NCBI GenBank assembly: GCA_045837725.1
Contig: JBEWZL010000306.1
Coordinates: 310,001-362,065 of the forward strand
Source: Vermamoeba vermiformis
Taxonomy: Eukaryota
DNA length: 52,065 nt
Reading direction: 5' to 3'
Of the stretch, positions 3,001-48,196 are shown piece after piece; within the stretch, counting starts at the first letter, position 1; every line of letters starts with the position of its first letter. The notes below the pieces were generated by a model that saw nothing but the letters and a program-made list of their open reading frames with translations, was not told the origin of the DNA and did not search any database. The position numbers were made by a program, and so were the translations under genes.

Positions 3001-5681
3001 TGTAGACTGGTCCTACGTCAATCATCGATCTGCAAAACAGCGGTGGCGAGTTCAAGCTCGACATGGTCAGCAATGCTGTGTACCTGCTTGTTGGCTGCAG
3101 TTCACCGAGTACAGTGACATTGATCGCCAACAACACCGCTGTGAGTGCTACATCTTGGACCATTAATGTCACCTTGCCAGCGATTGATGAGACACGATAC
3201 CTCAACGTACTTTCCGAGAAAGGCAATGATGGTGTTGTGAATGTGCTGCTGCCGACGTACATTGACTCGTCATCCAACAACCTCTTCACCGGCTACTCTG
3301 TGTCCATGCACTCGAATGGCTCGTTCAATGCCTATGGACTGAAGTCGTTCCTGCTCAATGTCGACCACATCGCGTTGACCTCACGAGAGCTCATCTTCGC
3401 AACGATCACGGGAGCTCCATCCAACGCTGAAATGGTTGCCAATGCTTTGATTGGTTCATCACTGGACGTGCAACAATTGACCTCACCGTTGCTAGCTGTC
3501 AATCTTCAAGCTAAGTTGTCACCGTCAGTATTACTGGGCCCCATGACCTACGTAGCCTACGGACCTGGCTCATTCACGCACTTGAACTGCACATTTGTTG
3601 AGCAAGTTTCATTTGACGGATGTCTACTGCTCAAAACTACGACAAGCAGGACAACCTCGGGGTGGTTTAAGGCTCAACTTGACATTTTTAACATTCCTCA
3701 CTCGAATGCTGAACACGTCTTTTGCGCATTCGATACAGAACAAGTGACAATCAGCAGTCAAACTGTCAACGCAATTATTCCATCGTTCGAGCCGCCAGCA
3801 CGAGTCCTGACAATTGACAGCGGAAACCTCAATCTCCACGATTCTATTCAATGGACTAATGCGTCAATTGTAGCGACCCACCTTCGCGTCGAACCTCGCT
3901 ACAGAGTTGAATTAGATGATCAATTCAAAGCTGCTGCTGACATTCATTTTGCCCAAGGCGCTGTGATGTCAGTCACATGCAACAAAACGCACGAAGAATA
4001 TGCTCAATGGACTGTTGGCACAAATCAGCCTTCATTCGATTGGCTCGGTCCTTCGTGCTTCGGATCTATTGGGACGTTCGAAATACCCAACTTGAACTTC
4101 ACTGGCACTGGTATGACAATCGCCAACATGAACTTATCTGCATTGCGGGAAGTCGCGAACAACAGCCTGGTGACCATCACGGACAGAATATTCACGCTTG
4201 ACAACGAGACACGTGTCAAATTCAATGAAGATGCGCTGAACATGTCGTGGAGTGTTCACATGTCAACTTTGAACCATTCCATTATGTTAGTTGACTCAGC
4301 GCCGTGGTGTCAATTGGTGGTCTCGGGAACTGCTTCAACTCTCGTCACGTCTGTCGCACAACATCACGTGGTCTTCCCTGGTCGAGATCTCGTCTATCAT
4401 TGGGAGACTAAGCTCTTGGAACCATTTGACCTATCAAATGACAGCACGTGTCTCAGACCTAACGAGATGTGTTCACCGAACTTTTGGATCGACATTCAAG
4501 CTCACGGAACGTACTTGTGCGAGCCCAAGTGTTCGTCATTTGATCTCACAATCAACACAACTCTCGCTGTTGAGTGCTATGTGCCGTTGTTTTCAGAAGG
4601 CTGGTCAGTTCTCATTGCTGCCCGTGAGTACGTGCCTGCTGGTCCCAACATCCCGATCATCTTATTTGCCATCTTGTACTTCTCCCTCATTGCACTGACA
4701 GCTCTGTCTAACGCATTCGACGGCCTCATGTTGTTCGGAGGCTGGGCCGAGTGCGTGATCACAGGCGCATTGTTCACGGTGAACAGCATCGAGAACTATT
4801 GGAACTTGGACATCCGTTCTTTGATCGTATCTGCAAACGAGATTATTGATGGAATGTTCGAGAGCTGGTTATGCGACGATAATATGGCTTTTGAAGTACC
4901 TGCATGGGCTCTCCTCGCATGTGCTGCAGTTGTGCTCCTCGTCTCATTGCTGCAACTGCTCCACGACGCAGGCAACAACATTTACGTCAGAATTGCCAAG
5001 TCCTTGTCCACGGCATCGCTGTTAGTGTTCTTGCCGTACTTCATTACACGTGTTGGCATGCCTTCATGGCCTGAGATGTTCCCGATTGGAGTGATCGCTG
5101 GTCGTTTCATCTTCGACGCGTTCTATCCTGCCGTGCCTTGGAGTCGTACAATGATCTTGAAGAACTTTGAGAACAGTCCTGCAGGTGACGAGTTCACGCT
5201 CCGAGAACGCCTTATGAACGGCGCTGTCAACCTCGCTTTGCCTGTCATTTGTGTCGTGGCCTCAACCTTGACACGTGAAGACGTTACAATCGAGCCTATG
5301 ACAGCCACGTGGATATTATTTGCAATGGTTTTAGTGGCCTGTGGCGCGTCAGTGTTGCGTGTCATTCTCTTTACATCATCAGCACCGCGATTGATGCACC
5401 AACAGCTCGCATTACCCGCGCAAATCATCGCCTTTGTGATGATTGGTCTCAGCACTGGTGCAGGCCTCACGCTCGTGGCACTATTGCACTACTTGCCAAC
5501 ACTGCCCGCAACTGCTTTTGTCACTTTATGGTGCGGCTGGGTAGTACTATTGGCGCTTGTGCCTGTTTTATTCGTCTGGCGAAAGATTGAAAAACCACAA
5601 CCGAAAAGTCAGCGGAACTCGGAGTACGTTCTATTGGACGAATTTGACAATAGCGTGGTAACGTTCCATAACAAATTGTAA
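1..5681 (+). CDS. Giant (>1,850 aa, 5'-truncated) extracellular beta-rich protein with C-terminal multi-pass membrane domain; exons <1-2957 and 3006-5681
   Basis: The frame is open from the window edge. ORFs 36..2969 and 3063..5681 are joined in frame by a 48-nt phase-0 intron (GTAAGT at 2958 ... TGTAG at 3005). About 9 hydrophobic segments lie in the last ~350 aa. GxGxD/GNDT-like turns occur in the ectodomain. Confidence 0.85.
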
Positions 5682-5769: not shown

Positions 5770-7898
5770 TTATTTATCTCGTTTCAACTGCTCCCACACG
5801 TCCAAGTTTCGAACGAGAGGTGTCAAAACATCTGAAAACGACGTCGACAAATTGTCGTCACAAATCACCACTGTTCGTGGGCCAATCACATTCGCAAGAT
5901 CGCTGAATGCTCGTCCATTTGATATCACCACCGTGAACTGATCGTTCGACGGCAGCGCTGGGTGCGTTGTTTGCTGGATATCGTGCGCATCGAGGGTCAT
6001 GTTGTCTTGAGGCTTTCTCACCACACGAAGCCACAACCAGCACGCACGATGGTCATCAGATCGATGACACTTTATTACTGATGTGTTCTCGTGGCCGTCA
6101 GGGAGCATGATTTGCTCAGCCCAGTCCTCTAATTTATTCAGCCACTCGTCCATTTGTTCGTTCGAGTTCAGTGGTTTCCTGCCACCAAAGCATTTAGTAG
6201 GTCTGATCATGAACGTGCTCTTCATCTCTTCGCTTGCAAATGCATCGCCGAATAAATCGATGAAACTGATGTGAGTCTTCAGTTTGACAGCCATGCAATT
6301 CGCTACGTTGAACCTGAGATGTTGATGTTCGCTGCACAATTTCTCGAACCATTGAGGACCTCGTTCATGGAAGTGATGGAATATGTCCGACGCATGATTC
6401 GGTAAATCTTCCAACAAAAGAATCAGTAGCTCTTCTTATTGTACAAACAAAGTAACTTACCAGTGGGGTATGTTTGATAAAGTGATTTTTCAAGTGCTAT
6501 GAGAGGCGTGCTGAGTATTTGGCACTTTCCAAATGGTTCATGAAGTCGATGACGGAATATTTGCAGGTTGATTACGCTCTTGACTGTTCGGCCAAAAAAA
6601 CGAACTTTCATGTCGACAGGATAACCAGACAGTGCGGCTAACATAAATATATCGGGACATCCCCCAACAGGCCATTTATACGTTATCGGTGCCATAAGAA
6701 GTCCTTTAGATGTCTCTGGCGTTGTGAATGCAACACTCTTCATCTCAGCAAGGCCAGGATTGCCATCTAACAAGAACATGAATTGCGTTGAGTCCCTAGC
6801 AAGTGGTCGTAATTGTCGGAACAGTCGGTACTCGTCTTGCTTGATGATGTCGATTAGTGTCTGTGTGCTCATTGGCTTCATCTCCACGTGATTCACTTTG
6901 TAAGCTGATGCTTTCAGATAGGTCTGAAGTAGTGACGGTCCTTTTGCTGTGATGACCATAGGAATTAGTGTCACTGTTGAGTATCTCTGTTGCATTGGCG
7001 CCAACAGCTTCATATACTCTTTCAGAAGATGCTTATTGGTTGAAATAGGCGAGGTATAGCATGCCAATTCATCAGCGTCATCCAACACTATATGAATGAC
7101 TTTTGGTGGATTTGGCTCGGCACAAATTTGGTCAAATATCATTTCTAATGAAGGAATGTCTGACTGTTGCTCCTTGAACAATTCGGCCACTCCAATTAGG
7201 TTAAAGGATGGAAACCAATAAGTGCAGATCAGGTGCAAAGATAATCTTGCTTCAACGGACCAATTCTCATACCCTGATCTGCTGGGAGCTGCATGTCCAT
7301 AAGTCAGATTGACGTATATAATTCGAGCTGAATTGAAACACTCTGCCTTTCCGTCTTTTAATTTGGCCGCAAATTTTTGCAAGATCGGGATCAACTCGAA
7401 CGCAAATCGTGTTCTTCCGGAGCCTAGCGGACCGTACAAATGCCACCATGTAAATTCCTTATTTTCTTTCTCCATATTATGAAGGCAGTAGCTAAAAAAT
7501 AACTTTAGCGTGTCTTTCACATCTTGCTCCACATAATCCAGATTTAGAAACCGAGGGCGTGAACATTCGGGTATTAACAGAGTTTTCAGTAAACTCTCTC
7601 GAATTTCACAATAGTCAGATTCTTCTAAATGGTAATTAGTTGCAAAAAGAGATTGCAAACCAGAAGGTGGTTTCGGTTTAGGCCTTGTTTCTGAGTCTAT
7701 AAACCGCAGTTGGTTATTATGTATACGATATCCTATTATATTACCTGAAATTATTCTTTCTAAACTTTGGGAAGGCTTTGTGAAGATCTGAATGCGAGAT
7801 GAGCAATTCCGACCGAGCCTTTGTACCCAATTCTGTGGTCTTCCAATCTCGAATATTTTGCTCTTTCGAAAGAAGTTCGTATGGATAGCTCTCAACAT
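5770..7898 (-). CDS. P-loop NTPase with C-terminal domain, Crinkler/RHS-type NTPase-REase-like architecture (degenerate)
   Basis: Walker A-like GPLGSGRT and Walker B-like IHIVLDDADE. A 53-nt intron at 6408-6460 (GTAAGT...AAG) joins ORF 6423..8009 to ORF 5770..6417 in frame (T-G|AT = D). First ATG is at 7898. Confidence 0.7.
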
Positions 7899-8199
7899 GA
7901 AAAATTGTGATTGTGCTTGTGCCACTGGTGCGCGGAGAAAAATAGTAAATTTGACGATTTCTTTTCCGGCCAACCCTTTTGCAGCCAAACAGCGCAAACC
8001 CTTTGGCACAGCGTATTCCTATCGCCAGAAAGGAATTAAACTAACTTTTTCGATATTGAATTCGCTTACTTCGAAAATCATGCTCGCAGTTCAGCCAACT
8101 CCCGTTAGCACGATCGCTTGATAGGCTGATGACAAGAACACTCCAAAGAAATCAATGAAAAGACGCCAGCTAATTGTAAATTATGTATTTTACAATAAT

Positions 8200-11100
8200 T
8201 CACTGATGTAATAATTTCGGCCTGGGTACGATTAGAGCAAACAGAGCCATATCATCAATGTTAAATTCTATAGCCTCCTCTCGCGTCATAGGCAATACGT
8301 AAATTCGATATATGTCTTCTTCTCCCAAACATATTCCTGCCTTAAAATGGAAGGTTAGTCAGATCTACGCAATACTCGATCGAACTTACTTTTTCAATAT
8401 TTTTTAAGTAACGGTGAATAGAGGCATATTTAAAAGTCTCCCCCTTGGACGCAGGTTGCAAATATAATAGAGATGGCTTAATTGTATTATCAGTCGGGAA
8501 GAAGTTGGTAAGGTTTGTCAGATTTGTTCGTTCTTTCAGATCAAGCATTGGCGACCTAAAATTAGCATTACCGATATGCACTTACCATTGATATATAAGG
8601 ATTATAATTAACGGAAATTAAAGGTCAATTAATCTAGATTCGCAGATCGACGTACAGTTTCCTCCATAGATCTGAGCCACCCAAGAAATAGGCAACCATG
8701 TCGCAAACAATAGTACCACGTTTAGCCAAGTATCCGTGCCACACTTGAGGTTTGTCAATTCTCTTAGGTGAGCGAGGTGGTGAGATCGGTGACGATGGTG
8801 GTTGAGGAATGACTGGATTATCCTCCAACATATTCTTAATAAAACCCAATGCGACTGACTTAGGAACGCTTGAGACTGGAGGCGGCAAGCCAGGAGGAGC
8901 CAAGGGATTAGACGTTGGCGGGAGTTGATTTGTGTTCGACACCAACGCTGTTTGCGGTGCCGGGACACTTGTTACGGGACTTGGCTTCTCGTTAGCAGGA
9001 ACACCCAACAAACTCGCAGCTGTTGACTGCGCTGTAGCTTGCACAGGCTGCACATTCGTAGGCTGTTGAACAGATTGACTTGTTGACGGGGTCTGCACCA
9101 CGGCTGATGTTGTACTCGGTTGCGTTGATGCAGTGCTGCTCGTTTGAGGAACCGAAGCAGTTGACGCAGTAACTGTGGGTGCCACTGCTTGTTGTTGAGC
9201 CACTACATTTGTATTGTTGCGAACTGGCTCAGGCTTAACAGGCACAAACACCACTGGTTTAGGGGCAGTAGGTGTAGCTGTTGCTTTGCCCGCCATTGGA
9301 GCCTTTGGAGCCCCACTAGGCGTCGTATTAGCCGACGTTGTTGCCTTGCTAGCTGGCGCCGCTCCATTTGTTTGACCACTCAAGACGTTGCCACCCGAAC
9401 TCGTTACCGAACCACCACCCTGCACACTTGGAGAACTGGACGAACCTGTTGCGCTAACCACTGGGCCACTCACCGCTGTAGTCGTGCCAATTGCCGTAGA
9501 CCCATTCTTAGCACCACCAGAGCCACTGGGAGGGCTAGTCACAGGACCGGAGTTAGCTGCCGCGGAACCATTTGTCGAACTAGTCACACTCGGCGCAGAG
9601 CCACCGCGCGAGTCTACTTCCATGCGAACACCTGTATCACTTGAACTCACTGCTGTACCGTTCGTAGGCTGAGAACCGCTTGACGTCGAAGCTTTTGTTG
9701 AATTGTTGGATTGCGAGGTAGTTGTTTTAGTTGTGTTAGACGAAGTTGTTTTTGTAGTCGTTGGACTATTGGCACCCGGTGCAGTTGACTTTGTTGCGCT
9801 TGCGGAATTTGTTTTTGGAACTTCGCTAGGCTTCGAAGAACTAGCTGTATTTGTGCTGGAACTCGTCGTGCTTGGTGTGCTCGTCGTTGTTGAATCAACA
9901 GGACCATTGGCAGTCACAGTGATTGTAACATTTGTATTTGAGGACTTGCCAGCAGACTTGCGCAAACTGTCGCTTTTGGAGGACTCTGAGGAGTTGGTCG
10001 ACTTATTCTTATCGCTCGTAGTTGAAGTTTTTGTCGGTGTTGAATCGGCGCTCGTCTTTTGCCTCTTCTCGGGACGGTCTGAAATATTGTCGGGCGACGA
10101 CCTCTTTTGACCGCGAGATTCTTCGGCACGATCTTTTCTGCCTGCTTCAACTGCCCTGCGCGCTTGAACCAAAAGATCTTCTTCGGACAACTGACTAGGA
10201 TCACGAGGCGGTGTTCTGCTGCGCCTCGAAGGTGACCTGCTACGAGGCTCACTTCGATGAGAGTCACGTGGCGGAGTACTGCCTCGAGGCTCAGATCGCT
10301 GCGGTGGAGAACTGCCTCGCGGCTCATTCCTGTGACTATCACGCGAATAATTTCGATCTCTCTCATTATTGTAAAATCTCGATAAATTTCGATCAATAAG
10401 ACGTTCTCTATCATAATAATAATCTTCATCTCGGCCGTGACGATGTTCTTCATGACGCTCATTCGCTTCATCGGTAGGATAAAAGCGTCCTCGATTGTTG
10501 TTATCTTCTACAGGGAAAAATCTACTCACATCGGGCAACGCTGTATTACTTACTAATGCATTCAAATTGTTGGCTGTATTGAATAATCCTGCTTGCGAAA
10601 TTGTATCTTGTAGCTGCGCTAGGAAAGTAGGATCAAGTGTTGGCAATGCTCCGTTGACTCCATCGGGCATAACTCCGGCAAGTTGAGACTGATCCAACGG
10701 CACACCAGATGAGCCCAACAAGCTTTGAACTACTTGTTGAAGCAACTGTGGATCAACTTGGTCTTGTTGTTGTAAGTTCATATTCATATCCACCTCTTGT
10801 GGTGGCGGGTCGTACGGAGGATCGTTGTTAGGAATAGTTATTGTGAAACGCAAGTTGGGATCCAATCCTTCTTCCGTACGGTAATTATATTCGTCGTCGG
10901 ATTCGCCTTCTTCTCTTTTTTCTCGTCTACTCTTTGGTTTGCCACGGTCAGGCTCCTAAAATAATCCGGATTAGTTCCGGATTTCAAAAAAATAATCGAA
11001 AATATTTTAAAATTTGCAGAAAGGCCGTCTGACACAGATATAACTTAAACAATTATATAATAAAGTCGAGAAAAATATTTGTAATTGTGTGTTGTTATTC

Positions 11101-14024: not shown

Positions 14025-17000
14025 ATGTCATTCCCTCGTGCCCCTCGTTTTCCTGCCGAGAAAGGTAACAACTAATTTAATAATAATTGAAATATTTATT
14101 AATGATAAATAGATAACGGTATTCCGGGACCTGGTGCCTACAAAGGCGATCTTCCCGAGACCAATAAGGCTCCCAGATTTGGCAAAGCTGATAGATTCCA
14201 AGGTTCGTACTTACATTCGCTCATTTATCGAACAATATTTTAATATCGTTGGCACGATAGATAAGGAACAAGCAGGTCCTAACAACACTTTGCTTCGTTC
14301 GTCTTCCAAATCCATCACATCCGAATCTAAAACAAAGGTACGTCAGCTTGACTTCAGATCGAGATTAGCATAGTTACTCATATAGTAAATATATAGTCCA
14401 AACCCCTCGCATTAAAGAAGGGAACTAGCTTGCTTCAGCTCGAGCACATCATCGAATCTCTTGCCGAGCAAGTTGTCGCGGTCAAGGATGAGCTTCAGAC
14501 CAAGGACGAGAGCGTCACTCTCTTCAAGGATGAGCTCAACAAACTTAACTCCGAGATCAACTCCACTATGGATGCTCTCGAGTTGAGCAAGAAGGAGAAC
14601 GCTGCTTTGACTTCCGAGCGTCAAGATCTTTTGCTTCAAATCCAAGCCAACAACGAGCGTATTACTGCTTTGGAAGGCTTGAAGGTCGACATCGCTCGTG
14701 TCGAGGGCGAGCTCAAGAACACTACAGAGGCCAAGATCCAAGTAGAACAACAGTTAGCTGCTATGACTTCTCGTGCCGAAGATCTCACCTCGCAACTCAA
14801 CAACACTACTACTCGTCTTACCGAAACGCAAGCCACCCTCGAGGCCACCCAATCACAGCTCGCTGCTTTGCGTGAAGAGCACAGCGCTACTCAAGTTACG
14901 CTCAAGAACACCGCCGAAGAGAAGGAACAAGCCTTGGCCCGCATTGCTTCGCTCGAAGGCGAAGTGTCTTCCTTGACCTCCACTATTCAACAAATCGAAG
15001 CTACAGTTGCCTCCACTCAATCCGAGCTCGAGCGAACTCAATCCTCTTTGGAGCAGACCATCGTTGAGAAGCAGACCCTCGAGAACAGAGTTGAGGACTT
15101 GACCGCTCAACTCACTGCCACTCGTGAAGAATTGGCTTCAACTATCAAGTCATTCACTGAAGAGCTTGCCAACGAGCGCGAGACTTTGCGCATTACCCGC
15201 GAAGAGCTCACTGGCACTCAGACTACTTTGGCAGAGACTCGTCAATCCTTGGAGTCTACCACCGCTTCATTGGACTCTACTCGCGCAGAGCTCTCCAACA
15301 CCACCGAGCAACTCACTGAACGCACTTCTGAACTTGAATCGACCAAGACTCGCGTCGAAGAACTCTCTGGTGAACTCTCAGCAACTCAAGCAACTTTGCA
15401 ATCGACCACTGAACAAAAAGAACAAGCTCTTGAACGCATTGCTACTCTTGAGGGTGAAGTGAACTCGTTGACTACTCTTCAAAGCGAGTTGTCCGCCCAA
15501 TTGAACGAGACTAGCACTCGCCTCAGCGAGACACAAGCCACTCTCGAGTCTACTCAAGCCGAACTTGCCGCTACTCGCGAGCAACTTGCCTCTTCCGAGT
15601 CATCCCTTCAGATCACCACCGAAGAGAAGCAACAGGCTCTTGAGCGCATAGCTGCTCTTGAAGGCGAGGTCTCATCGTTGACCTCTACTGTTCAACAACT
15701 CGAGTCTTCTTTGGCTTCAACTAAGTCCGAGCTCGAGCAGACCCAAGCTACCCTCGAACAGACCATCAGCGAGAAGCAGTCATTGGAGCGCCGAGTTGAA
15801 GAGCTTACTCAAGAGCTCGCCACTACTCGCGAAGAGCTCACCGGTCAATTGAACGACACTAACGCTCGTCTTGCTGAGACCCAAGCTACTCTCGAGTCCA
15901 CTCAATCCACACTTGCTTCTACTAGCGACGAGCTTGCCACTACTCGTGCTACTCTCCAAACCACTAGCGAGGAGAAGCAACAAGCGCTCGAACGCATCGC
16001 CACTCTTGAAGGCGAAGCTGTCGCTCTTAACACACAGATCCAAGAGCTCGAGGCCAACCTTTCTTCTACCAAGTCAGATCTCGAACGCACTCAATCCAGC
16101 CTGGACCAAACCATCTCCGAGAAACAAGCTCTCGAAGGCAGAGTTGAAGACCTCAACGGTCAGCTCGCTGCTACTCGCGAGGAGTTAGCTGCCACCATCG
16201 AAAAGTACACCGTTGAGTTGACTACTCTTCAAGGTCAATTCACTCAACTCTCTGAAGAGCTCAAGTCTACTTTGGAGGCTAAGCTCAAGGTTGAGAGTGA
16301 GTTGTTGGAGGCTCAACAGTCAATCGAGCGCCTTGAATCCGACTTGCGCGACACTCGTTCTACTTTGGACTCTACTCGCACTGAATTGGGCGAGACCAAG
16401 ACTGACCTTGAGGCCACTCGCTTCACGTTGCAAGCTACCGTCCGTGAGCGCGATGGTGCCAAGACCACTATTGGTGAATTGGAGAAGAAGCTCGATCAGA
16501 CCATCAGCAACTTGAACTTCACTGAACAGATCCGTGCCGAGCTTGAAACCGAGAAGCGCACCTTGTTGAAGGAGAACAACGAACTCACTTCTTCTCTTCA
16601 ATTGACTTCTGTCCAGCTCAGCGACGTTCAAGGCACTCTCCGCACCGTTCGCGAGCAACTCTCTACTGTTACTGCTCGCCGCGACAAGTTGCAAGAAGAG
16701 CTTGAAGGCACCATCAAGTCTCACAACGACACCACCGCCAAGATGCAAGGCGAGATCGAGTCTTTGATTGGCGACTTGAAGACTGCCAAGCAAGCCAAGC
16801 ACGCTATGGAACAAGAGGTCGACGAGCTCAGCTATCAAGTCGAGACTCTCAACAAGAACCTCCGTGGTCTTCAAAACGACTTGAAGATGACCAACGACTT
16901 GAAACAGAACCTCGAAGTTGAGAACGTTCACTTCAAGATTCAATTCAACCGTGTCCAAGCCGAACTCGATTCGCTCAAAGTCACCACCAAGGACATCTCC

Positions 17001-19777
17001 GAACAGTTGGAAGAGGCCCAGAAGGAGCTCGCCGAGACTCGCAGCGAATTATCTCGCACTCAATCGTCCAAGCAAGCCCTCAATAAGGATTACGAAGCCT
17101 CCGTTCAACGCGGCATCGAATTGGATACTGAATTGGCTGCCCTCAAGGCCAAGCTCACCGAAACTGAGCACGAGCTCGCCTCTACTATCGAGTCCTTCAA
17201 GGCCAAGTTGGAGCAAGCCAGCTCCGAGAAGAAAGCTCTTGAGGGTCGTGTTGAGGACTTGACTGCCCAACTCACCGCCACTCGCGAAGAATTGGCTTCA
17301 ACTATCAAGTCATTCACTGAAGAGCTTGCCAACGAGCGTGAAACTTTGCGCGTTACTTCTGAAGAGCTTGCGGACACCAAGACTTCTTGGCAAGAAACTC
17401 GCCGTCAATTGGAGTCTACCACCGCTTCATTGGACTCTACTCGCGCAGAGCTCTCCAACACCACTGAACAACTCACTGAACGCACTTCTGAACTTGAATC
17501 GACCAAGATTCGTGTCGAAGAGCTCTCTGGTGAACTCTCAGCGACTCAAGCAACTCTGCAATCAACCACTGAACAAAAAGAACAAGCTCTTGAACGCATT
17601 GCCACTCTTGAGAGCGAGGCTGCTACTTTGACCTCCACCGTTCAACAACTCGAGTCAGATCTCTCCTCTACTAGATCCGAACTTGAGCGCATCCAAAACG
17701 ACTTGGAGCGAACCATCGTCGAGAAGCAGACCCTTGAGAACAGAGTTGAGGACTTGAGTGCCCAACTCACCGCCACTCGCGAAGAATTGGCCTCTACTGT
17801 TCAAGCTCGCGACGAACTCTCTGCTCAATTGGCTTCCAAGTCTGAAGAGTGCGCTACTTTGCAACAAACTCAAGAGCAAACCAGCGCCGATCTCTCTGCT
17901 GCTCGTGAGGAGTTGTCTCGTCTCCAGTCCTCTTTGAGCGACGTTACCGCCAGAGCCGACAAGTTGTCCGAAGAGTTGAGTGCTACTACCTCCGAAGTCT
18001 CTGCTGCCAACGAGCGCATCGCTCACTTCGAACAAGAACTCAGCGAGGCCAAGTCACGCAGCGACAAGCTCGACCAAGAGTTGTCTGAGGCTCAAGCTCG
18101 CGGTGCTCAACTCGACCAAGAGCTTGCTGAAGTCAAGGCTGAGTCTGCTCGTCTTGCTGAAGAATTGGCTTCTTCCCGATCACGTGGTGACAAGCTCGAC
18201 GAAGAGCTCTCCAGCGCCAAGGCTGAGTCTGCTCGCATTGGTGAAGAGCTCACTGAATCTCGCCAAGCTGTTGAAGGTCTTCGCAGCGAATTGGACTCGC
18301 GCGAACAACGATTCAACGAAGAACGTGAAGCCCTCGAGAGACAAGTCGCTGAATGGAAGGCCAAGTTTGAACACCAAGAGACCAAGATGAAGGAGTTCAC
18401 TGAAAACTACACCGAGCTGTTCAACACTAGCCAATCACAACTCGAGCTCATCGAGAACTTGCGTCAAGTCAACAACGAGTCTCAGACCCAGATTGAGACC
18501 CTGGTTCAATCTCGCGACGAAGCCACTCGCAATCTTGAGAGCTACAAGCAAGTGGTGGCTGAGAGCAGCGCTACTTACGAGGCCAGCATCAAGACCCTCA
18601 ACGAGTTGACCGAGAAGCTCCAAGCCGAGAACAACGCCATTGATTCCGATCGATCTCAATTGCGCGATGAAATTGCTCGTTTGAACTCTGCCAAGGCTGA
18701 AGTCGAGTCAGATCTGTCTTCCAAGAACAACGAGATTGAACGCCTCAACAAGCGTGTTGCTACCTTGGAACAACAAATTGAAGCTGATGCTAAGCGCAGT
18801 CCTGCAGTCTTCCAACAGCGTCTCGTTGAGAAGGAGGAAGTTATTACTAAGCTCCTCAACGAACTTGAGAGATCTGAACAACAACTCAAGAAGGAGAAGG
18901 AATTGACTGCCAAGCTTCAATACGACATTCAAGAAGCTGCTCGTAACAACGTAAGCACTATGATATGTTATACAATCGGTTTAATATTAACTCTATTGTT
19001 TTAGTTGACTTCTAAGGACAAGTCCAGCGAGAGCCACGTCGAGATGCAACGTACCATTACTCGCTTGAACCTCGAGTTGCGCAGCACTAAGGATGCTTTG
19101 GAACGCGAGAGAGAGAAGGTCCGCACTCGCGAGAACAAGATTGAGGGCATCAAGGTTGGCGAAGAAAAGGCCGTTAAGGATCTGACCTCGCAAGCCGAGA
19201 AGAACAAGCAACTCAAGGAGAAGTTGGTCCAAAAGGAGAAGGACTTGGTTGCCTTGAACGAGAAGTACAAGAAGTTGGAAACTCGTGCTGTTGAATTGCG
19301 TGACGAGTTGGATGCGATGAAGAAGGAGAACTCGCAAGTCTTGGCGATGCGCGATGACCTTATTCGTTTGAAGAACGACAATGAGTTGCTCAAGAAGCTC
19401 AAGGAAGAGGATGATGCTGTAAGTAACTTCAACATTTTTTTTCGTTACGAATCTGAAACTGATCCGAATCTGTTTAGCAAATCAAGGAGCTTATGGAGAG
19501 CAACAGCCAACTTGCTGGTCATGGCAACGAGAAGCAAAAGATCCAAATGCAGCACAAGCTCTTGAAGGAGAACCAACAACTCAAGAAAGAGAAGGTCGTG
19601 TTGCAAGAACAGATCGAGAAGGCCAAGCTTAACATTTTCAAGCTCGAAACTAGCTTGTCCAAGTACGTCGCTAAGGACAACGCTTTGTTGCCTGCCTCCG
19701 TTAAGAAGCCTATTTCTGTCTCAACGCGCACTTTATCGGCGAGCACTGGCATCATCCAAGCCAACCCTTCGATCTAA
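14025..19777 (+). CDS. HMMR: HMMR/RHAMM-like spindle-associated coiled-coil protein, ~1,824 aa (exons 14025-14064, 14113-14202, 14261-14337, 14397-18950, 19005-19418, 19478-19777)
   Basis: N-terminus MSFPRAPRF...PGPGAY...FGKADRF resembles the HMMR N-terminal motif. C-terminus LAGHGNEKQKIQMQHKLLKENQQLK resembles the HMMR/KIF15 basic-zipper tail. All introns are GT-AG and phase-consistent. Confidence 0.8.
15090..17612 (+). repeat. Intragenic duplication: 15090-15452 and 17250-17612 (offset 2,160 nt), plus additional diverged coiled-coil repeat units
   Basis: Near-identical DNA and peptide (RVEDLTAQLTATREELASTIKSFTEELANERETLR...KEQALERIATLE) in both copies. Confidence 0.9.
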
Positions 19778-34983: not shown

Positions 34984-35491
34984 TTGTTAATCGTGGAAAA
35001 CCGCTGTGGCACGGAGAGGTACGCGGGGTCAGATCGAGGCGTGCACGATCGTGGATGTCCTCGTTGCCAGTTTTGTGCGGCGCTTTTCTTTGACTAATTT
35101 TTTTAAATGATAGGGTAAGGATTTTGCAGATCGAACAAATATTCCAAATCGAGTAACATTTATATATAAATTATAAATAAATACAGAGCAAATAGGTGTA
35201 CTAAGATACAAGTATGTTGGACAGTTACCTTTATTTTGGTTGGGTTTTTTGAAAACGCATCCGAATCAACCAATCTCCGTTTGTAATTGAGCCATTTCAT
35301 GCATAGCTATGTAATCAACATAAGATAGTAACGTCGATCAATTAAAAATAATCCATTGTGTTGTTCAACGGGTAAAAGCTATCGCGATAAAAGCGTCAAC
35401 ATTTTTTTTGTCTTGGGACGGTCCTGTTCATGAAAACCCAACCTCTTTTTTTAATTCGAACAAAACATACAGTAGTAGACCACAACTAACC

Positions 35492-36548
35492 ATGTTGAAG
35501 CGAGCAAAAGGCATTAGACTAAACTGGTATCACTTATTTTTTGGATCCTTGTTGGTGATGACGTTTTTCGTCGCCTATAAATACGGGCAATACTCTCTAC
35601 AGTTGTCATATTCTCGCCAATTGCAAAGCGTGAAGGGAAATGGTGAAGCTCCGAAGGCCAAGATCGATGTATTAAGTTGGAATCCGCGCGTGTTTTATTA
35701 TCACAATATTCTCAGTGACGAAGAAGCAGACCATATTATTGCCATTGGCAAAGACCACTTACAAAGGTAATTATTTGAAATATTAATCAAATTTGAATTC
35801 GTTTTGGAATATTGGCGATTATTAATGAAAATACTTTCATGAACGCCATTTTTTAGCTTTCTGCCTTCCTTAAAATTTGCAATAATAGTCAATTATTATC
35901 TTTACAATTTAATATTAATATTGTACGCTTCTAGGTCGATGACTGTTGGTGAAAATGGTAAAGCTGTGGAAAATCCAGTACGCACGAGCTACGGTACTTT
36001 TATGACCGGTTCTCTCGCTGAAGACGATGTTGTCCAAGCATTGGAGCGACGAATTGCAGGTAATTTACTGATTTGCCAAAATTTCAAACCGAGATCTGGA
36101 TTTTAAAACTTAAAAACCAATTTCTTTCTAGAATGGTCTCACATCCCTCAAGAAAATGGCGAGGCCTTCTATTTGTTGCGATATGAGAACGGTCAAGAGT
36201 ACAAGCCTCATATGGATTGGTTTGCCTTAAACGCGGATGCTCCTTATTGGATCGGTCGCTCTGGTCAGCGCATGGCTACTGTATTGACCTACTTGGCTGA
36301 CGTAGAAGAGGTACGCAGCTGCTAACAGATTACTAGTCGTGCAGTACTAACGCTCCGATTACTAGGGAGGTGAGACTATTTTCCCTCGACTTGGTCTCGA
36401 GATCAAGCCTCGCAAAGGTGATGCTATTTTGTGGTACAATACTAACTTGGAAGGCAAGACCGAAGAGTTCACTTTACACGGCAGCAAGCCTGTCGTTCGT
36501 GGCACTAAGTGGGCTATGACTAAATGGATCCGTGAGAAGAAGGCTTAA
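35492..36548 (+). CDS. P4H: Prolyl 4-hydroxylase (type II membrane, 2OG-Fe(II) dioxygenase)
   Basis: N-terminal TM, then LSWNPRVFYYHNILSDEEADHII, VRTSYGTF, LRYENGQEYKPHMDWF (HxD), EEGGETIFP and TLHGSKPV..GTKWAMTKW. Confidence 0.93.
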
Positions 36549-36627: not shown

Positions 36628-38847
36628 TTAGATCTTCTCTTGGCCATTAATGATTTTATCAGCTAATTTTACGGCCTCAATCAACGTGTTCGTGTGCCTT
36701 GCACGCAAGTTAGTATCGCTGCATTCTTCGAATTCTTTTGCAAGAGCTCCTCGAACGTTGGCGATTTTCTTGTAGAAGTTGTCCAAATATATCACTGGCT
36801 TGCCCATAAGCGTGGACATGATACTCGCGTGAAGGCGATCGGTAATGATAATCCTCCCTCGGCTAAAGAGGTTGTTGACCATTTGCTTTCTGATTCCCAT
36901 AAAAGCGTGGCGATTATTGGGTGACAACGTGATCCACTGTTTAGGATATATTTGCGTATAATTGTAGACCACAGTTTTGTTATCAGATAGCAATTTGACG
37001 GGAAATCCCATCACCGGAAAGTCCCACACCTCGAAGGTAATGTTCCTCTTGCTTTTAAGCCATTGCAGCGCTGTTTTTTTGTCGTGTGGGAGAATGATGT
37101 TCTCTTTATCGATGCGAAGTAGTAGGATGATATCAATAACCGGTTTACCGTTTGGTATTTGCGGTCCCATTGCAAACGCCATGTCAGGAATATATTTTGA
37201 TGGAACTCCGGAGAAATTCTTTCTAGCAAATTCAAGTGAGGGGTAGTCTCGGAACGTGAGCAAAAGACGGTGGTTTGCTTGAAATGTATTGTTATCCGCC
37301 TCAAGGTATTCTTTTTGGGTGTAGTGAACCGATTGTGGCAAAAAGACGATGTCGTTGTTTTTAACTTCTTTAGCAACCTTAAGCCTGAAATTTGCATTAT
37401 CTCGCCATAAATCGCCAAAGTTGCCTCCGCCATGAAGAAGAAATACCCCGTCTTTAATAAGCTAAACAATCGTTAAGTCTAGATAAATCGATTGAATTAC
37501 TTACAGATTTCGCTACGGAAATATTTCTGTCCAAGAATTTGTCGGTTACGATTGGGAATTGTCCGTAGTTTTCGAGCAAGTGTTGAGTGCCCTGCCAAAT
37601 TAGGACATCACCCAGATTCGAGTGCATTGGAAGGTCCATATACGCGATCGGTTCTCCGGCTTTTAGAAGCGATCCTACCTCCTTAATTACCCGCTCTCGT
37701 ACTTTGCGAATACACACGAGGCGGTTCAATTCTATTTCAGGATCCGGTGCGATCGGTGGCAATCCTCGGTGGTAGTCTGCAGGGGTAAGTGCAGTCTGCT
37801 CGATGAAATTGGCATTGCTAACCACGTCGACCACTCCTTGAGCCAATAACAGTATTGTGCATAACGTCACAAGTATCGAGAACTTAGTTTTGGACTCGTT
37901 ATGTTGGCTCGCTGCCGTAGCACCAGTTGACAGGTACGCCGCAACACTAACCAAGACAAACGAAATAACCATTAGTGCTGTAAGAGTTACGGAACTCATT
38001 AGAAGCGCAAAAAGTGCTGCCACAATAAAAAAATTTGCCCTGCTGGGCTGCGTTAGTGAGTTGAAAAATATTCCGCAGCGACGATAACCGTAGCCCAGCA
38101 CACACGTCAAAGCCAAAGTCACAGCTGTAAATGAGACATTGACGTCAGGCAAGTAGACCAAATTAAATTCGAGCCATGCAAAGGGTGCCAATACAGCCAC
38201 TAGTGTGCTACTCGCGAACATCTCCGCTTTGAGATAATGCGCTGATTCCACGTAGCACTGGGCATAGTGATGAAGATAATAATTTACGTACGTGTGTATT
38301 GCAGAAGCTCCAATTTGTATGATTGCCCAGTGTGGTTGATGCGTTCGAAAGACTTCAACAAGAAATACGACAAGCCCAACGCCAAATAAAATATTTGCGC
38401 GGTTGAAGCTCGGTGTTCTTTCTGCACTATTGAACAATTGCCAAAAATTAAGCACTGAGAGCTAATAATAAATTATTAGTCAACTATTATTTAGTGGTTG
38501 ATAGAATAAATAAATTTATTTATAAAATTCGTTGTTACCTGGAACAGTCCGATAATCCACAAAGATGCATAGTTTAAGGCAATAAAAAATGCTGTAATAT
38601 CAGCCATATGCAAAATTGTTACGTACAGAGCGGATCGCGTGGCTTTGGATCCGTCTCTTTCTCCTCCAGATCCTTCTCCAACTACCCATCGAAGCACATC
38701 AATTATTGCCAGAAAAGAGGAAAAAGCCCATGCTGCTAATAAAGGGGTTGAAAATAAGGAAACAAGTATTTTGCCTTGGATTTGACTGCCAAAGGTTACT
38801 ACGAAGCAAGCAGTAACGAATACCACATTCGCAATATCAAACTTCAT
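36628..38847 (-). CDS. Fusion: N-terminal multi-pass (DMT/nucleotide-sugar-transporter-like) domain + C-terminal polysaccharide pyruvyltransferase (Pvg1-like)
   Basis: About 9-10 hydrophobic segments, then in the same exon DLPMHSNLGDVLIWQG. A phase-0 intron leads to LHGGGNFGDLWR, LPQSVHY, FRDYPS, PDMAF and IITDRLHASIMS. Start at 38847 (38940 is an alternative). Confidence 0.85.
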
Positions 38848-38964
38848 TGCAGTGGCTTTGAATGTGGTGTTTGGTCCATTTAAGATTCGGTGAACCAATT
38901 TGTCTCGTCGCCAAACAAAAGCGGACAAAACGGTGTACATTTTTTGTTTTGGATCTGCTCAAAG

Positions 38965-41900
38965 ATGGCACAAAAGGCATTAATTTTTGCAGTTTTGTTG
39001 CTGGTTGTGGCTTTCGTTGCTTCACAGCCCGGTAAGAGTGGCAGACTTTGAGATGAAGGTCTTAATTTCATACTAATTTATTACTTAGCGAATAATCCTG
39101 TAGCAAATCCCAATGCAATAGTATTGGCTGGCAATGCGCGCTTTACCGTCCTTACAAGGTAAATATCTTTTTCGATCGGTTAACACTTAATCATTTCTCC
39201 TGCAATTAAATCATTCTTGTCGTATTTTCGCATGACAAAAATTGAATTAAATTATTGTCCGGCTAATTATTACTATGACAGTCGTCTGATTCGCATGGAA
39301 TACGATCCGACGAGACAATTTGAAGATAGAGCTAGCTACGTGTTTATTAATCGTAATTTGGATGTGCCTTCATTTACTTCCTCAACAAGCGGCAGTTGGG
39401 TCACTATTACGACCGGCCACGTCGTGTTGCGATACAACACAGATGCGGGACCCTTCGAGAACAATTCCATTTCTGCAGTTATCGATGGAGGACAATTCAA
39501 ATGGGCTCCATTTATGCCAAACAGCGGTAATTTGTTAGGAACTGTGCGTACATTGGACGGCATCGACGGATCGCTTCCTATTGATTGCAAAAATCAACCA
39601 AAATGGGATCTCTTCTGTGCCTATGGTTTAGTCTCACGTGACGGTTGGGTTATTGGTATGCAATATATTATAAATTCAGTTAATAGGTGAATAACCTCTT
39701 GTTCATTCAGTGAACGACACTCAGAGCACACTCTTCAACGGTGACACTGATTGGAATTGGGTTGAGCCCCGCAACCCTCGTGCCGGACAATCTGATTGGT
39801 ACTTGTTCGCGCACGGCCACGACTACCGCGGTGCCATGAAGGAGTACACCAAGGTCGCTGGAAGCATTCCTTTGCCTCCTCGTTCTACTTTTGGCATTTT
39901 CTTCTCACGTTACTGGGGTAGGATGAATGCCACTAATTGAGTACAGCGCGCTAATCTCTTCCGTAACAGCTTACAGCGATGTTGACTTTAAGGACTTGGT
40001 CACGGAGTATGAAACTAACGACGTGCCTCTCGACATGCTCGTGATGGACATGGACTGGCACATTACTTTCTACAAGGAAGCCAGACAAGGAAAGAAAGGT
40101 AGGAGCACTTAATGGGTGTTATTTCACATAGGGCTAAGCATTTTTGGCACAGATCAAGCTAACCAAACCATCGGTTGGACCGGTTACACTTTCGATCCTC
40201 ATCTCTTCCCTAACCCTGGCGCGTTCCTTTCGTGGTTGAACTCGAAGGGCATTCACGCTACGATGAACCTTCATCCTGCTTCTGGCGTTCAGCCCTGGGA
40301 AGAGTTCTATCCCGAAATGGTCAGTGAACATGACTCGTGCACGCTCATTACTAACCTGCTAGTACAGGCTACTGCTATGGGCATCGATCCCAGCACTCAA
40401 AAGTACGTGCCTTTCCACATCACTGACAAGCAGTTCACCGTAAACTTGATGGACATCATGCTGAAGCCTCTGGAAGAGATGGGCATTAGATTCTGGTGGC
40501 TCGGTGAGTAATTATCGCGACAGGATTGTTTGTCTGACCCGAGCAGATTGGCAACAATGGCAGTACACTGAGGTGGTAAACATGAACCCTACTGCTTGGC
40601 TTAACTACGTCTTTATCACCAACTACGCTCGCGTCAAGTCGCAAGAACGACCTGTTATTTTGCATCGATGGGGTGGTCTCGGTAATCACAAGGTACTCTT
40701 TGATACTTGCTCGTTGGACAATGACTTACCACCTCTACAGTTCCCTTGGGGGTTCAGTGGAGACGTCGTTCCTACCTGGGCCTCTCTTCAATTCCAGCCG
40801 TACTTCACGCACACCGCTGCCAACGTTGGCTACATGTGGTCACACGACATTGGCGGTCACACTCGTCCATCACCTCCCGAGCTTTGTACGTATCGATAGT
40901 AGTACTCAGTAGCCGTTCCTAACTCTGATTAATGTAGACACTCGTTGGGTTCAATGGGGTATTTTCAGTCCCGTTTTCAGACCTCATTGCACAAAGGACG
41001 CCGATAATGATCGCAGAATCTGGATCTATCCTTATGAAAACTTCAAGATCATGAAGGACGCTTTCCACTTGCGCGAGAGAATGGTATGAGTATTCTGATC
41101 ACGTGCTTAATTAACACTCTTAATAGATCCCCTACATCTACACCTATGCTAGAAAGACCGCTGATACTGGTGTTACTTTCCTCTACCCGATGTATTACGA
41201 TTATCCCGGTAAGATACATTTCCCTCCTCGTGGAGTTCTTAACTAATTCGCTCCAGAATTCAACGAGGCTTACTCCTTCCGCGATCAATACATGTTCGGC
41301 GAACAGTTGCTGGTTAGTCCTGTCTTAACTCCCATGGATAACATCACCATGTTGTCCCAAAAGACCGTTTGGCTCCCACCAGTAAGCTCTCGCGCATTGC
41401 ATTTGGAGTTGTGTCTAACGTACGACTGCAGGGCAACTGGGTTGAATGGTCGACTGGTCGCGAATACGTTGGCCCCATGAACCTCACTCGCTACTACACT
41501 TTGGATGAAATCCCTGTCTTTGCCAAGTCGGGCACTATTATTCCTATGCGAGGCAAGATCACTACTCTGCTCGGTCAAGCTCAAAAAGAATACACCCACT
41601 TGCACTTCAAAACCTTCTTGGGTAGTGTTCAAGGCGGTTATTTCAATTTGTACGAGGACGAAGGCAACAACATTGATTACATCAGCGGTGCTTCAGCGAG
41701 TAAGTGCTTGTTCGTACGCAATTATAAGTGAGTCTTAACACCTCCTAGACACCAAGATCTCGTACACTTTGCACTCTTCCTCTAGCATCTCTTTCTCCGT
41801 CGACCGTACTGTTGGTAGCTATCCCACACTTCCTACTAATAGGTAGGCAGTAACCATGATGGCACAGGATTTGATTGCTCACCTTCGTTTTAGATCCTAC

Positions 41901-44341: not shown

Positions 44342-47300
44342 ATGCGTTCTTTAACTTTACTCGTTCCTTTCATTCTTGGCCTAGCTATACTAGCACAAGG
44401 TAAGTAGCGTCAGCAATGATTAATTACTTGTCGAACCATAATCCACTAACGTCATTGCAGCGGCTCAGCGCTACATTTCACCTACGGGCGACGACGTGCA
44501 AGGTGGCTCTTGCACCAACAGCGGTAGCCCTTGTGCAACTTTAAGTCACGTAATTGGACAGTCCACAAGCGGAGACACAATCAATTTGGGTGCCGGAACG
44601 TATGGTGCGACTGGAAACATGGAGATTACTTTATCGTCAATCAACTTAATTGTGCAAGGCGCTGGCTCTCAGCAATCGACTATCAACCTAAACAATCAAG
44701 GTAATTGCTATATTTGCGTTTGTTTCTTAATTAATGGGCGTGGATGCGGACTCCAAACTTGACAGACATCAATTAATTATATTCATTTTCATTGCTTAAA
44801 AAGGACTTATAAATATGTTATCTAGTCATGATTGCGTTATTCTTGTGCTCATACATACTTGAAATTCCGTCAAATGTCTCCCCAAGTCCCAAGCTAATAT
44901 TTTCTTGACAGGTCGAGCCTTCATCATCACGAACAATGCTCAAATCACTCTCACTGGCCTCACGATTACCAATGGCAACGGCGCAATCAATCCCTACACC
45001 CTCTCTGTTATCGGCGGTGGAATCATCGTCAACAACGCCAAGTTAACGATGACCGACGTGGTGTTGAGTCATTGTTCCGCTTTGCAAGGAGCGGCAACGA
45101 CCCCATCCGGAGGATGCTTATATACAACGGTAATCAAGTTTTCACATCCTCGAGAAGATTAACCGAAAGTTAAACTTCTATTTTAGGATGCTGATCTAAC
45201 GATGACTGATTGCTCGCTATCCAACTGTCATAGTGGTATCGCTGGTGGGTGGTATTCAGGAGGTTCAACAACGGCAGTCTTGGATAAAGTAACGTTTTCA
45301 AATTGCACGACAGCGCCGACCGGCTGGGGTGGTGGATGTACGTAAAGACCCGAAATACAAATAACTCTAATAACTTATCTAGGGGTCCCTAACGACAATA
45401 CGGTCACTGTGATAACCAACTCCGCCTTTGAATACAACACTGCTGGCTACGGTGGAGCTCTGGATGACGGTAATTTAAATTTTCTATTTTTGTAATTTAA
45501 CCAAAAAAGGAAAATTTCTGATTTTCTGTATTTAGGCAGCAGCGCGCACTACAACATAACAAATACTGTCTTTCGTGGCAACTCCGCACAATATGGTGGC
45601 GTGCTCTTCACTTACGGTGTGGCCGTGTCCTACTGGAAAAACTGTTCCTTCTACGAAAACTCCGCGAATAATGCCGGTGGTGTGGTGCGCACTACTTCGT
45701 CGACGAGCTCAACATTTGACAGCTGTTATTTCGAGCACAACACTGCTCTTGGTGGTGGCGGAGTCTTTTCGGCCCTTTCCGACGGAGCGACCGTTGCAAT
45801 TAACTGTGTGTTCCGACGAAATTTCGCTCAACTTAACGGCGGTGCTATCGAACAGAACGGTCCAATGACGGTGTATAACAGTCTCTTCGAAGAGAATTGG
45901 ACCAACTACAAGTCCTCTGTCTATGACATCATCGGTTCGGCGGCAGCAGTGTTCTACAACAACACCATGCGCCGCAACTCTTGCGTCAAAGGAACTATTG
46001 CAGTCGATGCCAACTCTGATTCTCCGTAAGTCAAAAACAAAGTGGATTTTGAATCAACAATTAACGCGTCGTACTTAGTCCAATCGTGTTCGACAACTTG
46101 ATCTTTGACAGCAACACAGCTAGCGAGTCCGCTGGTGCAATGTGGATTTCCAATAGCGCGCAAGTAACGCTTAGCAACTGCCAATTCATGAACGTAAGCA
46201 ATTGTGTCCCCTTGAAATTTCGACGGACTAATTCTGGATTAGAATTCAGCAACTGTCGGTGGTGCGGTTCAAACGCAATCGAGAGCCATGGTGACAATTG
46301 TGGATTCAACATTCACCAACAATCAAGCAACCAAGTATGTAGTTAGTTATATTTGGTGGCGTATTATAGTCATACTGACGATTTCTATCGCAGTGGTGGT
46401 GTTGCTGACTTTGGCGAGGCCAGCGTTGTGACAATTTCTAAGACAACGTTCGAAGACAACATTGCAGTCCTCTACGGCGGCGCTATCTACCATGAGGCAC
46501 TCTCGCAACCGACGTTGATTTCAGTTACTTTCAAGAACAACTCTGCTCAGTTTGGCGGTGCTTACAGCGTCGCTTCGAAGGCCGCTAAGTGCTTCAACAT
46601 GACTCAAGTGAGCTTCATCGGCAACACAGCAGCCGTTGGAGGTGGTGCGATGTACTTCCAAGGCTTTGCCACGGATTGCGACTTCAAGAATCTGTGCAGC
46701 GATTGTGTTATGACGAGCAACACTGCGTTGTATGGCAGCGAGATTGCAAGTTCCCCCTACATGTTGGAGTTCCAGAGCGCGCCTCCATCAGCACTTTCGG
46801 CCTCACAAATCTTTTCGATAACACTTATCCTGCTCGATCAATTCGACCAACAAGTCCAGCAACAAGACGACACGCTTATTGTGGCCTCGCTCGGATCATC
46901 TAATGCCACGCTTCAAGGCATTGTGAATCAACAAGCTTCGATCAACGGCACAGTCACGTTTCAGCTTCTTAAAGTCAATGCTTTCCCCGGCACGCCTATC
47001 AGTCTGATGTTCATGGCAAAGCCTTCGTCTCTAGTCCCTGCCGTTGCGAACATCATCATCTCTGAGTGCCAAGCTAACGCCGTAACGTACTCAGCTGATG
47101 GCCAGTACCATTGCCTCGACGTCAACGGCGTTCAATACGTCACAATAGTGAGCATTTCAGTTATTACTGCCGGTCTCATTCTTTTGTCCATTGGACTGTT
47201 GGTCTTGCTCATTGTCAAGCGCAGACATTCTGTCATTCACAAAGCCAGTCCACCACTCTGCTGGATGATCGTTATTGGTGCCATCATCTGCTACGTTAGT

Positions 47301-48196
47301 GCGTATATGTGGCTCAACACAGAAGACGCGTACTGTGTGCTGCGCATCATCTTGCTCGTCATGGGTTTCTCCCTCATGTACGGCTCGTTCTTCGTGAAGG
47401 AGTGGCGCTTGTACAGGCTGTTCAAGTTTGACAGCTTGAAAATCACCAAGATCTCCGATCTAACGCTCATCAAGATCGTCGCTATTGTCGTCAGTTTTGA
47501 ATTGGCTATTGTTTTGTTCTGGCTCGTCTTCTTCCCATACTTGCAACGAATTGACGTGGACCTCGAGTCATCGCAAGAGACCATCACTTATCGCTGCTAC
47601 TCTGGTGGTTCGCCATTCTTCTACACTCTGATCGCTGTCAATGGTGTGCTTCTACTTTCTGGATGTTTGCTCGCTATTTTAACTCGAAACATTCCTGCCA
47701 ACTACAACGAGAGCAAGTACTTGGCCTTCTCAGTAAGTGTCTTTATTCTATCGCGAATCATAATCTGACATCGCGTTAGGTTTATAATGCTACTCTTACG
47801 CTCTGCGTTATTGTTCCTGTCGCTCACGTACTGACAAAGCCAGACGACATCTCAGTAGCAGTTACGTCGGGTATTTTGTTCTCGACCACTGCCTCGTTAA
47901 TTGCACTGTTCGCACCGAAGTTGCATTTGACCCTTACAAAGGGTGCGATTGTGAGGGCTCTCGACTCGCGATTAGGTACGCACGAATACCATTGCTGTAC
48001 AAGGCGGGAATTAGTCTAATGATTTTACCCCGCAGAAAAATTAGAGAGAGATATTGCATGGATCAGAAAGCAGCGCAGCGAGTTCCGCGAGGATGGCACT
48101 TCAGTCAACTCAAGTCGTACCACTCCTCCCACGACGACAGTTGCAGGCACCATGGGCACGCTGAACACCATGAACACTCTGAATACACAAAATTAA
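44342..48196 (+). CDS. Class C (family 3) GPCR with pectin-lyase-like/POMP-repeat beta-helix ectodomain
   Basis: Signal peptide MRSLTLLVPFILGLAILAQ and repeated FxxN...GG[AV] units. 7TM with IHKASPPLC, YGSFFVKEWRLYRLF, TRNIPANYNESKYLAFS-VYN and LFAPK. Stop at 48194-48196. Confidence 0.88.

Follow-up and report, generated by a model that had tools for sequence, protein, structure and literature searches.

The window analysed here is a 52,065-nucleotide (nt) stretch of contig JBEWZL010000306.1 of Vermamoeba vermiformis (assembly GCA_045837725.1, positions 310,001 to 362,065 of the forward strand). On its minus strand it holds a three-exon gene (38847/38940..36628) for a predicted protein of about 700 amino acids (aa), in which a polytopic membrane domain of 11 predicted helices is fused to a pyruvyltransferase domain of the PF04230 family resembling Pvg1p of Schizosaccharomyces pombe. 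The gene was delineated from the listing of open reading frames (ORFs) and by direct reading of the DNA, in which three minus-strand open frames follow one another head to tail (38958..38491, 38461..37454, and 37461..36628). All of its features are on the minus strand. Exon 1 (38539..38940, within ORF 38491..38958) has its first in-frame ATG at 38940 and a conserved ATG at 38847, giving predicted proteins of 730 and 699 aa, respectively; it encodes helices 1 to 3 and the first half of helix 4 and ends in phase 0 at a GT donor at 38538. Intron 1 (38462..38538, 77 nt, GT..AG, phase 0) is followed by exon 2 (37505..38461), which is part of an uninterrupted stop-to-stop frame of 335 aa (37454..38461). 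This exon carries the second half of helix 4 and helices 5 to 11, i.e., seven hydrophobic helices, then a linker of ~30 residues, and finally the first ~70 residues of the transferase, including the HSNLGD motif (37607..37624), the Asp of which aligns to the proposed catalytic D106 of Pvg1p. Intron 2 (37462..37504, 43 nt, GTAAGT..TAG, phase 0) lies within the transferase domain, and reading through it leads to a stop. Exon 3 (36628..37461 including the stop, coding 37461..36631) encodes the rest of the pyruvyltransferase with the motifs HGGGNFGD, PQS, TFRD, and ITDRLHA. As delimited by hydropathy and loop charge, the membrane domain (~317 aa) is encoded by 37820..38847, intron 1 included.

The membrane helices and HSNLGD are read in one frame, so that a single exon joins the membrane domain to the beginning of the transferase. 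An earlier note on this stretch had reported this uninterrupted exon, with a frame (37454..38455) that proved six bases short at its 5' end, and had argued that the fusion was not a splicing guess; both statements are borne out, as the same continuity from membrane domain to transferase is found in about nine divergent relatives (P0001, P0002, P0003, P0014, P0004, P0005, P0007, P0009, and the intronless L003). When 1.84 billion representatives were searched exhaustively with phmmer, 10 proteins matched at an E value of ≤0.001, and the transferase start lies within all 10 alignments; hydrophobic helices are present upstream in at least 6 of these 10 matches, P0001 and P0014 being additional cases. 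Exon 2 is 46 to 49% identical to P0001, P0002, P0003, and P0014 over nearly its full length. The same search of 1.84 billion representatives returned no stand-alone copy of the membrane domain. We also considered that two adjacent genes could have been mis-joined, and rejected it because the helices and the transferase start share one frame here, in seven homologs represented by ORF fragments, and in L003.

The gene model rests on comparison, and four lines of it agree on the predicted structure. The first ATG of exon 2 occurs only at residue 81, yet this exon is conserved with its relatives from its first residues, which implies that an upstream exon is required. In the metagenome contig L003, the whole protein is encoded by a single intronless ORF of 685 aa (L003:31-2094, plus strand), with the N-terminus of which exon 1 of the window is co-linear; both predicted splice junctions align gap-free to it in a local alignment, and the spliced product has the same length across intron 2. 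Two other metagenome contigs (L001 and L002) carry an exon 2 homolog with 50% identity and, upstream of it, a counterpart of exon 1 (44% identity, E value of 8e-24 by tblastn), whose last residue corresponds to that of exon 1, with a GT directly after it, and which is separated from the exon 2 homolog by a GT..AG intron of 122 nt. Since the frame of this counterpart opens just nine codons ahead of the ATG equivalent to 38847, the conserved start codon is probably 38847, the ATG further upstream, at 38940, being a possible start as well. The L001/L002 relative came from the later tblastn search, the sole match in a previous search with exon 1 having been a near-duplicate with 99% identity (P0012). 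Moreover, the open frames of all seven ORF-fragment homologs stop shortly after the position of intron 2, which each of them enters through a Val codon (GTN), indicating that the position of this intron is common to them.

In the catalytic domain, exon 3 matches PF04230 with 73 bits (cut-off of 25.3 bits, E value of 5.1e-20), and the homologs P0001 and L003 score 91 and 76.9 bits, respectively. The best match among solved structures, both for exon 3 (E value of 4.1e-21) and for P0001 (E value of 1.4e-23), is Pvg1p of S. pombe (5ax7), a Golgi galactose 4,6-ketal pyruvyltransferase with which the window protein shares the motifs NxGD, HGGGNFGD, PQS, xRD, and ITDRLHA. In HMMER alignments, chain positions 53, 164, and 284 of 5ax7 are D, R, and R and are matched to the NLGD Asp, the TFRD Arg, and the ITDRLHA Arg, respectively, the NLGD Asp being placed via the P0001-5ax7 alignment. 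If all three chain positions are shifted by a constant +53, an offset that we infer, they coincide with D106, R217, and R337, which are the proposed catalytic residues of Pvg1p according to excerpts of the structural study (PMC4872226). The residues matching these three are thus conserved in the predicted enzyme, and all 8 aligned sequences have the N, L, G, and D of HSNLGD. The same excerpts assign to H168 of Pvg1p a role in limiting the choice of acceptor (PMC4872226); the equivalent position is an Asn in the window protein, so that the acceptor may differ from that of Pvg1p. Altogether, the label "Pvg1-like" appears well supported for this domain, and the predicted enzyme would catalyze the transfer of pyruvyl from phosphoenolpyruvate (PEP) to a sugar.

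Bacterial PF04230 relatives, found with an alignment query, are 27 to 35% identical to this domain, and a contig search with the catalytic domain of L003 alone returned no match. The soluble bacterial enzymes, including those of Rhizobium, Sphingomonas, and Bacteroides, are co-linear with the catalytic domain over ~300 residues but are intronless and mostly devoid of an upstream hydrophobic segment. Among 80 bacterial loci, 74 have a transferase ORF, and such a segment is absent from 70 of the 74 and present in 3, the remaining one being a fusion (L030) considered below. No relative was found in the viral contigs that were scanned.

Pvg1p has one N-terminal transmembrane helix and is a type II protein, whereas hydropathy predicts 11 helices between residues 8 and 317 of the window protein (numbered from the start at 38847), all connected by loops of ≤20 residues, helix 4 straddling the junction of exons 1 and 2. 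With a cytosolic N-terminus, the Lys and Arg residues (K+R) are distributed over cytosolic and luminal loops as 13 and 2 in the window protein and as 12 and 3, 8 and 1, 10 and 0, and 8 and 2 in four close relatives. This positive-inside bias in five members argues for a cytosolic N-terminus and a luminal or extracytosolic catalytic domain, as in Pvg1p; the enzyme is thus predicted to reside on the luminal side. An N-x-S sequon on the predicted luminal loop 7, kept in 5 of 5 close members, and six sequons within the catalytic domain of the window protein agree with a luminal enzyme. Moreover, a Cys that is invariant in 8 of 8 sequences lies 35 residues ahead of the catalytic Asp, and a second Cys lies 38 residues past the Arg of ITDRLHA; the spacing of this pair resembles that of the C68-C373 disulfide of Pvg1p (38 and 36 residues), as given in a figure legend of PMC4872226.

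Several polar positions are conserved within the membrane domain, helix 3 contributing H and D, the end of helix 6 HH, and the end of helix 7 E. In the alignment columns, the conserved intramembrane polar residues are H, D, Q, and E, and no column of the membrane-domain alignment is dominated by K or R inside the helix cores. The domain evolves faster than the enzyme, with identities of 40% versus 62% to P0001 and of 21% versus 42% to L003. Since the number of helices and several of the polar residues are kept across relatives down to 21% identity, more than tethering is to be expected, and the membrane domain probably has a function beyond anchoring.

Pet1p and Pet2p, the PEP transporters of S. 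pombe, belong to the TPT family, and carriers of phosphorylated anions normally have conserved basic residues, as known from TPT structures. A related identity for the membrane domain found no support in sequence comparisons. No transporter family of Pfam was above cut-off in 11 sequences scanned, and exons 1 and 2 gave no Pfam family at an E value of ≤1. Even at an E value of ≤10, none of these 11 sequences, exons 1 and 2, L003, P0014, and P0001 among them, had a DMT match (TPT, EamA, and nucleotide-sugar-transporter families included), and the MOP/Wzx flippase families (PF01943/PF13440) had no match in the scanned sequences. When seven members were scanned singly at an E value of ≤10, 14 weak families appeared, none of the DMT clan and none in more than two members, with the HMMER filters removing most matches above an E value of ~0.1. 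Profiles built from 17 EamA, 15 TauE, 21 MOP, and 14 Wzy proteins of five bacterial genomes were compared by hhalign with a 10-sequence alignment of the membrane domain, resulting in probabilities of 3.4% for EamA, 0.2% for TauE, 1.4% for MOP, and 0.1% for Wzy; the background, given by these four unrelated families against each other, was 0.1 to 0.8%. A custom EamA hidden Markov model (HMM) gave ≤7.3 bits on all 10 members. An internal repeat received a probability of ≤0.5% at four split points, compared with 98.6% for the halves of EamA and 98.9% for those of TauE, although a purely structural repeat would escape this sequence test.

Structural approaches gave no clearer affiliation. The AlphaFold models of exon 2 (8 sequences; predicted local distance difference test score [pLDDT] of 45.4) and of the L003 membrane domain (10 sequences; pLDDT of 54.7, predicted template modeling score [pTM] of 0.32) are too poor to judge the fold. 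Fold searches with such a poor model retrieved only generic helical bundles, and no DMT chain was among the top 50 in either of them. A profile search of the PDB gave a chance match only (E value of 0.95), and the ESM Atlas model of L003 had no structural neighbor above a template modeling (TM) score of 0.33. The membrane domain thus seems to belong to no described family and is, as far as the searched representatives go, only ever fused to this transferase subfamily. Had a member of a large carrier family been fused recently, stand-alone copies would have been expected.

Our study argues for a secretory-pathway ketal-pyruvyltransferase of the Pvg1/PF04230 type in which a lineage-restricted polytopic domain replaces the type II anchor, a reading that we regard as probable. 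We propose a model in which the membrane domain (~320 aa, 11 helices with very short loops) would take the place of the single-pass type II anchor of Pvg1p. With the N-terminus in the cytosol, the polypeptide would cross to the luminal side with its eleventh helix, and the catalytic domain would there decorate glycans with pyruvate derived from PEP. As regards the role of the membrane domain, we rank an anchoring, assembly, or acceptor-handling module ahead of a PEP conduit. A known enzyme family would thereby appear in a new architecture, with a polytopic orphan domain instead of a type II anchor, and from the occurrence of this gene family, pyruvylated glycoconjugates are predicted for a group of free-living microbial eukaryotes. 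If the membrane domain moves PEP or handles the acceptor, the protein could provide a compact model of a luminal transferase coupled to substrate supply; if it only anchors, the finding amounts to an annotation note. Information on eukaryotic glycan pyruvylation is called scarce in a review (excerpts of PMC6801904), and the passages returned by full-text literature searches held no description of a polytopic-domain fusion of a eukaryotic pyruvyltransferase.

Several observations weigh against this reading. RNA sequencing (RNA-seq) reads from three runs with the same species label gave 1, 0, and 8 reads at 95 to 99% identity on 2.8 kb, 8 of the 9 being located on the neighboring gene at 36400-36493. 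None spans a splice junction, so that these 9 reads contain no transcript evidence for the gene model, and one 322-nt contig of run X11, running unbroken across intron 2, is probably DNA. The topology is based solely on helix boundaries set by hand and on the positive-inside rule, and the number of helices is less clear in the divergent L003, where it is 11 or 12. An anchor would also not need as many as 11 helices that are closely packed and contain conserved polar residues. Moreover, two leads point toward transporters. One is a sub-threshold match of L003 alone to TauE/SafE (PF01925; E value of 4.7e-5, 23.6 bits versus a cut-off of 32.6). A custom TauE HMM scored L003 at 17.4 bits and all remaining members at ≤8.8 bits, and hhalign gave 10.6% to TauE for L003 and P0004 together; the relation to TauE is thus an unconfirmed lead that is not reproduced family-wide. 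The other lead is the presence of EamA clusters among the nearest ESM Atlas neighbors in two look-ups, with scores of 0.89 and 0.88 (153 and 150 shared features) and then 0.82, all of which are below the bars of the tool (score of 0.9 and 170 features), which reports such scores to be common for shuffled proteins.

An alternative that bears directly on the earlier note is that the 11-helix domain, whatever its fold, is a PEP carrier or channel feeding the fused luminal transferase. A luminal PEP-dependent enzyme needs PEP import, and in S. pombe the Golgi type II enzyme Pvg1p is supplied by the separate PEP transporters Pet1p and Pet2p, as stated in excerpts of three articles (PMC4872226, PMC6801904, PMC10435577). 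In the window protein, the 11 helices would equal a 10-helix carrier with both termini in the cytosol plus one type II anchor helix, an arithmetic that is not specific, and the short loops and conserved intramembrane polar residues look transporter-like, to which the EamA neighbors and the match of L003 to TauE, a family of anion exporters, can be added. These arguments have to be set against the lack of any transporter family at cut-off in 11 sequences, hhalign probabilities to EamA and TauE at background, and the failure to detect a repeat with the very test that recovers those of EamA and TauE. The helix cores also have no conserved K or R, although these would be expected in a protein that transports a trianion, the 1.84 billion representatives yielded no stand-alone homolog, the membrane domain evolves faster than the enzyme, and the Atlas scores are within the range of the tool for shuffled proteins. 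We thus consider PEP supply by any fold unlikely. A more definite form of it, in which the domain founds a new Golgi or endoplasmic reticulum carrier family, unrelated to the DMT carriers of fission yeast, that would bring in PEP, or a different anionic donor, and pass it directly to the fused transferase, is unlikely as well. A highly diverged transporter of the DMT/TPT fold related to Pet1p could invoke the same helix arithmetic and the same two Atlas leads, but all sequence tests for DMT failed and neither fold search, albeit with a poor model, had a DMT chain in its top 50; we hold this to be the least probable of the readings, and its small probability is counted within that of PEP supply by any fold. 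Pet1p and Pet2p are functional analogues only, as polytopic membrane proteins beside a luminal pyruvyltransferase, and the window domain is without similarity to DMT-type models, this comparison being with the models and not with the Pet1p and Pet2p sequences themselves. The earlier note had interpreted the protein as a self-supplying pyruvylation unit with an N-terminal DMT/TPT-type carrier. Its Pvg1-like transferase, the dependence of Pvg1p on separate PEP transport that it described, the fusion, and the predicted luminal orientation, the reverse of which it had named as refuting, are all in line with our results, and the identification of the carrier is not supported; PEP channelling is thereby left as a conjecture.

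Acceptor handling, in which the membrane domain would engage a glycan on a lipid carrier or a growing polysaccharide, either binding it or moving it across the membrane, draws on an analogy with flippase-transferase fusions of bacteria. In excerpts of PMC6801904, the bacterial enzymes CsaB and WcfO are reported to require acceptors linked to lipid pyrophosphate (lipid-PP), and 1 of the 80 bacterial pyruvyltransferase loci, L030 from an actinobacterial metagenome-assembled genome, encodes a polytopic domain N-terminal to PF04230 in one plus-strand ORF of 1138 aa (L030:1630-5043), which combines a MOP/Wzx flippase (Polysacc_synt), PF04230, and GT2. In L030, the flippase is recognizable (E values of 1e-12 to 4e-14) and GT2 is found after it, whereas the window domain matches neither; it is ~150 aa shorter than MOP flippases, and the hhalign probabilities of 1.4% to MOP and 0.1% to Wzy do not suggest a relationship. 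In addition, Pvg1p, the closest solved relative, modifies the galactose of N-glycans in the lumen, according to excerpts of PMC6801904 and PMC4872226. As a specific role for the membrane domain, we consider this improbable. A further reading would have the catalytic domain face the PEP-rich cytosol and modify an intermediate on that face of the membrane, so that no PEP import would be needed. Bacterial pyruvyltransferases of this family work at the cytoplasmic face, and a helix count made by hand could be off by one. This would conflict with the positive-inside bias, consistent in five members, with the conserved sequons and the Cys pair located as in the disulfide of Pvg1p, and with the luminal type II nature of the closest solved relative, which makes a cytosolic enzyme very improbable.

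Beside the window protein, the relatives themselves call for some remarks. L003 is intronless while seven relatives have a common position of intron 2, and L003 and L002 come from the same metagenome assembly. Public models of the relatives appear incomplete. The NCBI model P0001 (614 aa) starts at the equivalent of exon 2, seemingly without the first exon, and has 17 extra residues exactly at intron 2, beginning with Val and ending with Lys, which fits a retained in-frame GT..AG intron of 51 nt. P0013 (347 aa), like the other short matches, is apparently a single-frame read of exon 2 that continues into intron 2, through which P0013 passes into another frame. As to habitat, word shares of 0.29 to 0.42 were obtained in water and aquifer metagenome runs, from which no habitat claim is drawn.

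Other genes lie on either side of the pyruvyltransferase gene. A multi-exon gene for a 2-oxoglutarate- and Fe(II)-dependent (2OG-Fe[II]) oxygenase (35324..36548, plus strand), prolyl 4-hydroxylase-like, with PF13640 on its last exon (E value of 3e-7) and an N-terminal hydrophobic anchor, converges on the pyruvyltransferase gene, with ~80 nt between its end and the stop codon of the latter; it is on the 3' end of the oxygenase gene that 8 of the 9 RNA-seq reads are located. On the other side, exon fragments of a GH31 glycosidase (39184..40112, plus strand; PF01055 with an E value of 2.6e-4 on a 61-aa piece) lie in divergent orientation to the pyruvyltransferase gene. Three genes of glycan or secretory-pathway function are thus direct neighbors, which may be coincidence. 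Elsewhere in the window, one coiled-coil protein of 1535 aa and four long open frames of 531 to 988 aa share one list of spans (14397..19001, 3..2966, and 3006..5678 on the plus strand; 6426..8018 and 8637..10955 on the minus strand), and these four frames have no Pfam family at an E value of ≤0.001. A class C G protein-coupled receptor seven-helix domain (7tm_3, E value of 9e-41), with a Chlamydia-PMP-type repeat ahead of it, is encoded at 46347..47765 on the plus strand.

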